Assembly (NCBI RefSeq): GCF_003334785.1
Contig: NZ_QOWV01000001.1
Reading direction: 5' to 3' (one strand)
Length of the DNA: 64,000 nucleotides
DNA from: Escherichia coli
GTDB lineage: Bacteria > Pseudomonadota > Gammaproteobacteria > Enterobacterales > Enterobacteriaceae
Below, piece after piece: positions 60,905 to 61,114 of the stretch (the stretch's first letter is position 1; every line of letters begins with the position of its first letter). Below the pieces are notes generated by a model. It was not told the DNA's origin. It saw only the letters and a program-made list of their open reading frames with translations, and did not search any database. Both the position numbers and the translations under genes were made by a program.

Positions 60905-61114
60905 TTAAGCTGATGTTAATCGAAACAAGCTTTAACCATAAAGATAGTGTAGTATGTTGCGCCTCAAAGCCAGGCCGATAAACGTCGAGTCGTTTACTTA
61001 AGGCCTGAAGAGTTCAAACAGACTTTACTATCAGTGAGTCAGATGTAAGTTCTGACTCACTGTTGCACAAAAGCATATCAGACGCCTGGGAAGGCGACAC
61101 CAAAAGGAAGCTCT

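Follow-up and report, generated by a model that had tools for sequence, protein, structure and literature searches.

Within the 64-kb stretch of Escherichia coli DNA analysed here (hereafter, the window), the spacer between yciQ (59009-60904) and rluB (61115-61990) is 210 nt long and carries a perfect inverted repeat, which we call HP1 (Table 1). Around position 61 kb, the window is identical to E. coli K-12, and gene names were taken from the RefSeq annotation of the identical K-12 sequence, in which the order is rnm-yciO-yciQ-rluB, followed by cobO on the opposite strand; no feature is annotated under the yciQ-rluB spacer in the RefSeq records. Window positions convert to U00096.3 by adding 1,265,737, which places HP1 at 1,326,769-1,326,799. 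Its arms, CAGTGAGTCAGA (61032-61043) and TCTGACTCACTG (61051-61062), are 100% complementary and enclose the loop TGTAAGT (61044-61050); the yciQ stop codon is 128 nt upstream of the element, whose stem ends 52 nt 5' of the rluB ATG (61115). The first-pass annotation had described a perfect 12-bp stem with a 7-nt loop, about 50 bp upstream of rluB and not followed by a U-tract, and we confirm its coordinates, its full complementarity and the missing U-tract: the 3' flank reads TTGCACAAAAG, and a terminator scan does not flag the site. With G-C at six of its 12 pairs, HP1 is a G+C-containing stem-loop on the sense strand, as intrinsic terminators are, but its K-12 tail, TTGCACAA, has only 2 U in 8 nt.

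Table 1. Features of the yciQ-rluB spacer and its borders (window coordinates)
Feature	Position	Strand	Description
yciQ (DUF2207)	59009-60904	+	Accessory gene; its 3' flank, to ~61081, brings HP1 to the yciO-rluB junction
Candidate rluB promoter, GTG-TAGTAT-GTTGCGCC	60946-60963	+	-10-like element at 60950-60955, then a G+C-rich discriminator
Upstream leader hairpin	60971-61007	+	CAGGCC...GGCCTG with an inner AAACG/CGTTT stem; seen in leader folds; E. coli-specific
HP1	61032-61062	+	Perfect inverted repeat, 12-bp stem and 7-nt loop; read as an RNA hairpin of the rluB leader
Linker TTGCACAAAAGCATATCAG	61063-61081	+	A/U-rich, single-stranded; 17-19 nt in class A loci; 68% unpaired in the predicted K-12 leader fold
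HP2, G-ACGCCUGGGAAGGCG-ACA	61081-61099	+	Stem 61083-61087 / 61092-61096, tetraloop GGGA
Shine-Dalgarno (SD) sequence AAGGAAG	61104-61110	+	From the ORF list and sequence; predicted to be largely unpaired
rluB start codon	61115-61117	+	From the ORF list and sequence

Hairpins of this quality exceed chance in the window. With loops of 3-10 nt allowed, the 64-kb sequence has perfect hairpins of 12 bp or longer at three places, whereas 100 dinucleotide-preserving shuffles of it gave 0.02 per shuffle on average. As RNA, HP1 folds at -19.4 to -20.1 kcal/mol, with z = -4.7 for the -20.1 fold relative to dinucleotide shuffles. E. coli genomes carry this sequence at one place each, and it does not belong to a repeat family; within two mismatches, the window contains no second copy that forms a palindrome. 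Searches against Rfam returned only far-sub-threshold eukaryotic snoRNA models for 60400-61600 and no match at the rluB leader in four other loci. The other two perfect hairpins are a 14-bp hairpin at 46078-46109 (AAAGCCTCCGACCGGAGGCTTTT), whose flanking A and T runs give it the look of a bidirectional intrinsic terminator, and a 13-bp palindrome at 59087-59115 (GAGATCCCTTCTT-ATG-AAGAAGGGATCTC), which lies in the 5' part of the yciQ coding sequence and is unrelated in sequence to HP1.

The first-pass annotation had proposed that conservation of the palindrome be checked in related species. Across a comparison set of 82 rluB loci from Enterobacterales (eighty of them fetched), stems homologous to HP1—hereafter “class A”—were found in 23, from E. 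coli, Enterobacter, Leclercia, Kosakonia, Shimwellia, Pseudocitrobacter, Cedecea, Pluralibacter, Erwinia and Yersinia. Their consensus is CAGTGAGTTA ... TAACTCATTG (in summary form, CAGUGAGUUA...UAACUCAUUG), and a covariance model of HP1 finds one site in the window and scores at least 59 bits in 23 loci. Some properties of these stems are fixed and others vary. The distance from the stem end to HP2 is 17-19 nt in every homologue, and in the lower stem sequence is conserved as well as pairing; the K-12 stem has 12 bp, whereas those of the homologues have 9-15 bp and include mismatches, and the gap between the arms, 7 nt in E. coli, reaches ~16 nt or more elsewhere. Immediately after the stem, 13 of the 23 loci have at least 4 U in 8 nt (TTTTTGAAAG), compared with 2 in K-12, and the Kosakonia copy is terminator-like by the terminator scan. 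The U-tailed homologues have stem energies of -3 to -17 kcal/mol, versus -17 to -25 kcal/mol for the E. coli stems.

Pairing in class A is maintained through sequence change. In a MAFFT alignment of 22 class A sequences from eight genera (alignment A2), standard pairs fill 90.9% of HP1 cells—a percentage that is biased upward because the aligned loci were picked for a visible stem—whereas slid controls were 33-50% paired. Both sides have changed at seven of the ten HP1 pairs (e.g., U-A / U·G / C-G; A-U / G-C / C-G; U-A / C-G), and this count of double changes is, like the slid controls, less affected by the selection. None of 500 shuffled A2 alignments matched HP1 on any of five measures. RNAalifold, applied to 11 complete leaders, independently predicted both HP1 and HP2.

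The mispairs that are tolerated point to one strand. At A2 column 9-40, G·U is the commonest pair (14/22), and further positions carry G·U or U·G; read on the opposite strand, the same wobbles are A·C mismatches. Alleles within E. coli follow this pattern. The perfect K-12 stem is present in 2635 records, and a C61060T allele that creates a G·U pair is present in 1029 (about a quarter of the spacer-carrying E. coli genomes); the latter folds at -17.1 kcal/mol on the + strand versus -12.3 kcal/mol on the - strand. A rare allele (L002; 15-18 records) carries two double compensatory changes, CAGTGGGGCAG...CTGCCCCACTG. Because the wobbles fit only the + (rluB sense) strand, they indicate an RNA stem and not a protein-binding DNA palindrome, and, taken together with the E. 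coli alleles and the variable arm distance, they favor an RNA stem over a symmetric DNA operator. The structured element in the rluB 5' UTR that the first-pass annotation had raised as one option is thus upheld by compensatory changes across eight genera, sense-only wobbles and RNAalifold. We consider it highly probable that selection maintains HP1 as an RNA-level structure in the rluB leader, and the best explanation of the inverted repeat is that it is the DNA image of a sense-strand stem-loop in that leader; to this account as a whole, together with the barrier role described below, we would give about an even chance.

HP1 is not, however, the only hairpin found at this place. Citrobacter, E. 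albertii, the Enterobacter cloacae group, Buttiauxella and 1442 yciQ-less E. coli genomes carry an unrelated G+C-rich hairpin upstream of HP2 where HP1 would be (“class B”); the version in the E. cloacae group (AAAACGGGC...GCCCGTTTTT) is a terminator of textbook form that lies 3' of the -10-like motif. Within E. coli, the two arrangements segregate with an accessory segment. Specifically, yciQ and its spacer are present in 3992 of 5426 complete genomes (~73%) and absent from the 1442 (~27%), in which yciO lies directly upstream of rluB and the GC-rich hairpin takes the place of HP1. The presence/absence segment spans 58982-61081 in the window (the alternative junction is L082 2935-3034), and homology between the two junction alleles starts exactly at HP2 (GACGCC). 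In other genera, yciQ was not found upstream of rluB. In Klebsiella, five genes separate yciO and rluB (ortholog table, PMC3415461). Variable DNA concentrates at the yciO-rluB junction, a hotspot where inserts differ among genera; at one locus of the comparison set (L035), hardly any ORFs occur in the 1.4 kb upstream.

When the 62 nt upstream of HP2 were folded in an unbiased test, the median z was -1.44, compared with ~0 in rluB coding-sequence controls, and z fell below -2 in 37% of loci versus 2-9% in the controls, with ~30 of the 82 loci weakly structured. A hairpin upstream of HP2 is therefore frequent, not obligatory, and the same test speaks against a near-universal hairpin at this position. 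Nature also dispenses with HP1 itself, as in the 1442 E. coli genomes with an unrelated hairpin and in most Pasteurellaceae-like loci (see below), which have none.

HP2, on the other hand, hardly varies. Its core, ACGCCUG(G/U)GAAGGCG (61082-61096), forms a 5-bp stem capped by a G(G/U)GA tetraloop of the GNRA type and adjoins the rluB SD, with the motif ~15 nt upstream of it. HP2 (ACGCCTGGGAAGGCG plus flanks) is identical, save for G/T in the loop, in 81 of the 82 Enterobacterales loci, from Escherichia to Yersinia, Serratia and Pantoea; the exception, L062, differs by a single substitution in the outermost stem pair. Each E. coli genome holds one copy, and Rfam has no match. Because HP2 is invariant in class A and in 81/82 loci, evidence of covariation was sought further away. 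A protein search for RluB homologues returned Enterobacterales only. On a metagenome contig that encodes a 74%-identical RluB, with yciO directly upstream and a 40-nt spacer, HP2 takes the form ACGCTTGGGAAAGCG, in which one stem pair has changed from the Enterobacterales C-G to U-A. A metagenome scan for GACGCYTGKGAAAGCGACA then yielded at least 120 matches. Among the matches listed, at least 100 were T..A, mostly in the order yciO stop, HP2, SD and ATG, with a handful in unrelated G+C-rich sequence, and at least 20 were mismatched C..A, all within unrelated G+C-rich sequence; the matches listed included no C·A intermediate in the yciO-rluB context. From their gene context, the T..A loci next to yciO look like Pasteurellaceae. 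In most of the yciO-context loci, only 10-30 nt separate yciO from HP2, and HP1 is absent. HP2 itself is absent at two more distant RluB genes, one of which is arranged scpB-rluB. As HP2 stands without HP1 in most of the yciO-context loci, it behaves as an RNA hairpin that works even where yciO and rluB share a polycistronic message, which makes HP1 the accessory of the two.

How transcription reaches rluB bears on whether HP1 is part of its message. The stretch from HP1 to the ATG is too short to hold a promoter and contains no -10-like sequence in any class, so transcription would enter upstream of HP1 and pass through it together with rluB. A promoter downstream of HP1, in the linker or HP2 (including a sigma-54 reading of HP2), was rejected for want of a conserved -10 or -35, and class B linkers lack TAnnnT altogether. 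Upstream of HP2, TAnnnT followed by a G+C-rich 8-mer occurs in 67 of the 82 loci, though the filter is loose and some of these hits may be due to chance. Most fit (T/C)(C/A)(G/A)TG-TAnnnT-(G/A)(T/C)GCGGCC, with T1, A2 and T6 invariant and the middle variable, and they lie either 45-54 nt or 100-146 nt upstream of HP2. Such a pattern is characteristic of a -10 element with a G+C-rich discriminator, and GTG-TAnnnT-GTGCGGCC is likely an rluB promoter of the kind subject to stringent control. In K-12, the motif lacks a good -35 and is not called by a consensus scan, and for these reasons it remains a candidate; a start from it would put HP1 ~70 nt into a leader of ~150 nt. In Pantoea, Erwinia, Kosakonia cowanii and Superficieibacter, a near-consensus sigma-70 promoter (TTACA-17-TATAAT) lies upstream of the leader. 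A conserved TTGAAT was also observed in class A loci, 20 nt upstream of the GTG-TAnnnT-GTGCGGCC motif. Two other candidate signals were set aside, namely a boxA-like GCTTTAACCA at 60929-60938, which is a poor match and lies upstream of the -10-like element, and an IHF-like WATCARNNNNTTR, which fits some relatives but not K-12.

Published transcript maps add information on RNA ends. No rluB start site is given in the supplements of the Cappable-seq (PMC4782308), ROSE (PMC10301672), Shigella dRNA-seq (PMC7132871) or Romero 2014 (PMC4681348) studies. Term-seq data (Adams et al., 2021; PMC7815308) place a Rho-dependent 3' end inside yciQ at 1325258 (window 59521, +), the rluB terminator 3' end at 1327761 and a Rho-dependent antisense 3' end within rluB (window 61202, -). 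The 3' end inside yciQ implies that rluB needs a promoter in the spacer, and read-through from yciO/yciQ is probably low. Under the conditions and thresholds of that study, its tables hold no RNA 3' end in the rluB leader (1326799-1326810). As K-12 has neither a U-tract nor a Term-seq 3' end at HP1, termination there is unsupported in this strain.

The first-pass annotation had further suggested that a structured leader might affect translation or stability of rluB. We folded the K-12 leader from the inferred start. HP1 and HP2 each form with a probability near 1, while the SD is 74% and the AUG 57% unpaired; when the 5' arm is blocked in the fold, the freed 3' arm stays off the start region. 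Since the SD is open and the 3' arm does not re-pair, an SD-masking switch is not predicted, and the predicted leader fold lacks the masked SD or AUG of a translational operator. The translational half of the suggestion, as a direct effect through the SD or AUG, is thus not predicted. No antiterminator pairing appeared in the K-12 leader with the 5' arm blocked or in the RNAalifold consensus, and neither a ligand-binding domain nor a leader peptide was found in the rluB leader. Two specific candidates were rejected. A switch that pairs CUCAUUG (3' arm) with CAAUGAG at the start codon is complementary in some species only, shows no covariation, has only 4 bp in K-12 and is not predicted by folding, and the start-stop ORFs considered as leader peptides (ATG-TAA in the K-12 loop; GTG in the 5' arm) are unconserved in frame or presence. 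HP1 may plausibly affect stability, read-through or processing.

Other structure surrounds the two hairpins. The whole 210-nt spacer folds with z = -5.4. The upstream leader hairpin of Table 1, the inner part of which is deleted in the rare L002 allele, is enclosed by an imperfect 16-nt inverted repeat (60943-60958 / 61017-61032) that lies directly upstream of HP1. At the rluB start, GCTC-TAT-GAGC (61110-61120) can fold into a mini-hairpin of 4 bp whose loop holds the AU of the start codon; RNAalifold places it in 11 of 11 class A leaders, and it may simply reflect coding constraint.

For HP1 by itself, a generic barrier or stability element is probably the right description, and a barrier or stability mechanism is the account that we favor, tentatively and at somewhat less than an even chance. 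In this model, rluB would be transcribed from the -10-like/G+C-discriminator element at 60950-60963, or from further upstream, and HP1 would be a barrier derived from a terminator. The homologous stems of Enterobacter, Kosakonia, Cedecea and Erwinia, with their U5-6 tails, have the look of a leader attenuator or an intrinsic terminator; the E. coli copy would have lost its U-run (now UUGCAC) and gained stem strength, up to 12 perfect pairs. HP1 of K-12 would then most likely act as a constitutively folded site of pausing or leaky termination and as a boundary for RNA stability or processing. Such a boundary would set the HP2-SD-rluB module apart from what is transcribed upstream, namely yciQ read-through and the variable 5' leader; it would shield the 3' side of upstream fragments and leave HP2 and the SD to fold independently.

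A more ambitious reading, which we regard as unlikely though worth stating, is that HP1, the linker and HP2 together form an operator bound by RluB, through its S4 domain, or by another ribosome-biogenesis or RNA-binding factor, and that binding adjusts how far rluB is translated, read through or degraded, in feedback from ribosome assembly. The enzyme RluB is an RNA-binding protein with an S4 domain (Pfam hits; function, PMC11194073). The stem, loop and flanks of HP2 are invariant across Enterobacterales, with one compensatory change in the Pasteurellaceae-like loci, a constraint typical of protein-binding operators; the fixed 17-19-nt distance between HP1 and HP2 and the sequence conservation of the lower HP1 stem are likewise what such an operator would show. 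HP1, however, is missing or swapped for unrelated hairpins in many lineages that retain HP2; an operator function, if there is one, therefore belongs to HP2 and not to HP1. Neither does a literature search yield a paper that ties rluB to autoregulation; the proposed binding is putative. Mimicry of the RluB substrate, helix 93 of 23S rRNA, was also considered and set aside: the likeness of HP1/HP2 to it (GUGAGUCAG versus GUGAGACAG, and a GUGA loop shared with HP2) is weak, within chance by a rough estimate and unconserved in other genera. At a similarly low probability we place the version in which the three parts make up a previously undescribed cis-regulatory leader of rluB, with HP2 bound by RluB or an assembly factor and HP1 as an attenuator, and in which supply of the rRNA-modification enzyme would be matched to the demand of ribosome assembly.

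HP1 might instead belong functionally to yciQ, as a 3' stem-loop that ends or stabilizes the yciO-yciQ transcript by way of a non-canonical terminator or a barrier to 3' exonucleases; we hold this, too, to be improbable. Stable hairpins 3' of genes commonly protect 3' ends, and E. coli HP1 occurs only in yciQ-carrying genomes, on the yciQ side of the polymorphism. Yet the same stem family stands upstream of rluB, at the fixed distance from HP2, in seven genera that lack yciQ. HP1 also begins 128 nt past the yciQ stop and has no U-tract, and the 3' end on record is the Rho-dependent one inside yciQ, with none at HP1.

Less probable again, to a small residual degree, is that HP1 has no function of its own and is a neutral palindrome whose perfection is maintained by quasi-palindrome (template-switch) correction and which hitchhikes with the mobile yciQ segment. 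Its dispensability, with alternative alleles and lineages that lack it, is compatible with neutrality, and concerted changes of both arms, as in the L002 allele, are the expected product of template switching. Neutrality nonetheless sits poorly with a stem that has been retained in genera from Yersinia to Escherichia, with its spacing to HP2 fixed, despite diverged flanking intergenic sequence, and with covariation at 7/10 pairs, and correction at the DNA level leaves the tolerance of G·U/U·G in one orientation unexplained. The protein-binding palindrome of the first-pass annotation, i.e., an rluB operator for a dimeric transcription factor, we consider very improbable, for even though K-12 offers a perfect 12-bp dyad at a weak -10-like TACTAT (61026-61031), which HP1 overlaps, the half-site spacer ranges among homologues from 7 to 16 nt or more instead of keeping a fixed length, G·T at one or two positions breaks half-site symmetry in most relatives and in the 1029 E. 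coli records, the concerted half-site changes of L002, L027 and L041 are not tolerable to a fixed DNA-binding protein, and no matching site exists elsewhere in the window.

Comparison with known systems places the barrier model among several partial likenesses. As in intrinsic terminators used as leader attenuators, HP1 is a sense-strand leader stem-loop 3' of a promoter-like element, and its homologues in Enterobacter, Kosakonia, Cedecea and Erwinia combine a 10-15-bp stem with U5-6, one of them flagged. Unlike intrinsic terminators, HP1 of K-12 has no U-tract (UUGCACAA) and no Term-seq 3' end, and unlike attenuators, the rluB leader has no competing antiterminator helix, leader peptide or ligand-binding domain. 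HP1 shares with mRNA-stabilizing and boundary stem-loops (5' hairpins of the ompA type and intercistronic ones, such as REP, which stop 3' exonucleases) that it is very stable, autonomous and non-coding and lies beside an A/U-rich stretch that is a possible endonuclease site. With the inferred start near 60963, however, it would lie ~70 nt into the RNA, whereas the ompA-type hairpin is 5'-terminal, and, in contrast to REP/BIME elements, it is single-copy, unrelated in sequence and without an Rfam hit. RNase III processing hairpins extend over about two turns (roughly 20 bp), for which HP1, at 12 bp, and its homologues, at 9-15 bp, are too short. Finally, the arrangement recalls ribosomal-protein leaders (L20, S15), the thrS operator and the rnc and pnp leaders, in that conserved hairpins stand just upstream of the SD of a gene for an RNA-binding protein of ribosome biogenesis, and the sequence invariance of HP2 is that of the operators in autoregulatory leaders. 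It departs from them in that no Rfam model matches and HP1 is replaceable, and feedback here would be putative.

Full-text searches for the regulation or leader of rluB found nothing, and in the searched literature RluB is known only as the Ψ2605 synthase and an enzyme associated with 50S assembly (PMC11194073). No Rfam family and no paper in that literature covers HP1, and neither source shows a cis-acting RNA element for any gene that encodes a bacterial rRNA pseudouridine synthase. If HP1 is merely a generic barrier hairpin, the finding is an ordinary one. HP1 did, however, lead to HP2, a strictly conserved and unannotated hairpin at the rluB ribosome-binding site; HP1 is the variable half of this two-hairpin leader, and HP2 is among the most strictly conserved non-coding motifs nearby. 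Should read-through, stability or translation of rluB be under the control of the leader, the system would offer a simple and testable example of the tuning of a ribosome-biogenesis enzyme. E. coli also supplies a natural experiment, with yciQ and HP1 in ~73% of genomes versus an unrelated hairpin at the same place in ~27%.

The encoded protein also varies among the loci compared. In Yersinia (L064 1405-2454 and relatives; P0007-P0065), the N-terminus of RluB contains, after residue 4, an insertion rich in lysine and proline in which VVGEK units repeat, and RluB of Cronobacter is ~360 aa long versus 291 aa in E. coli.
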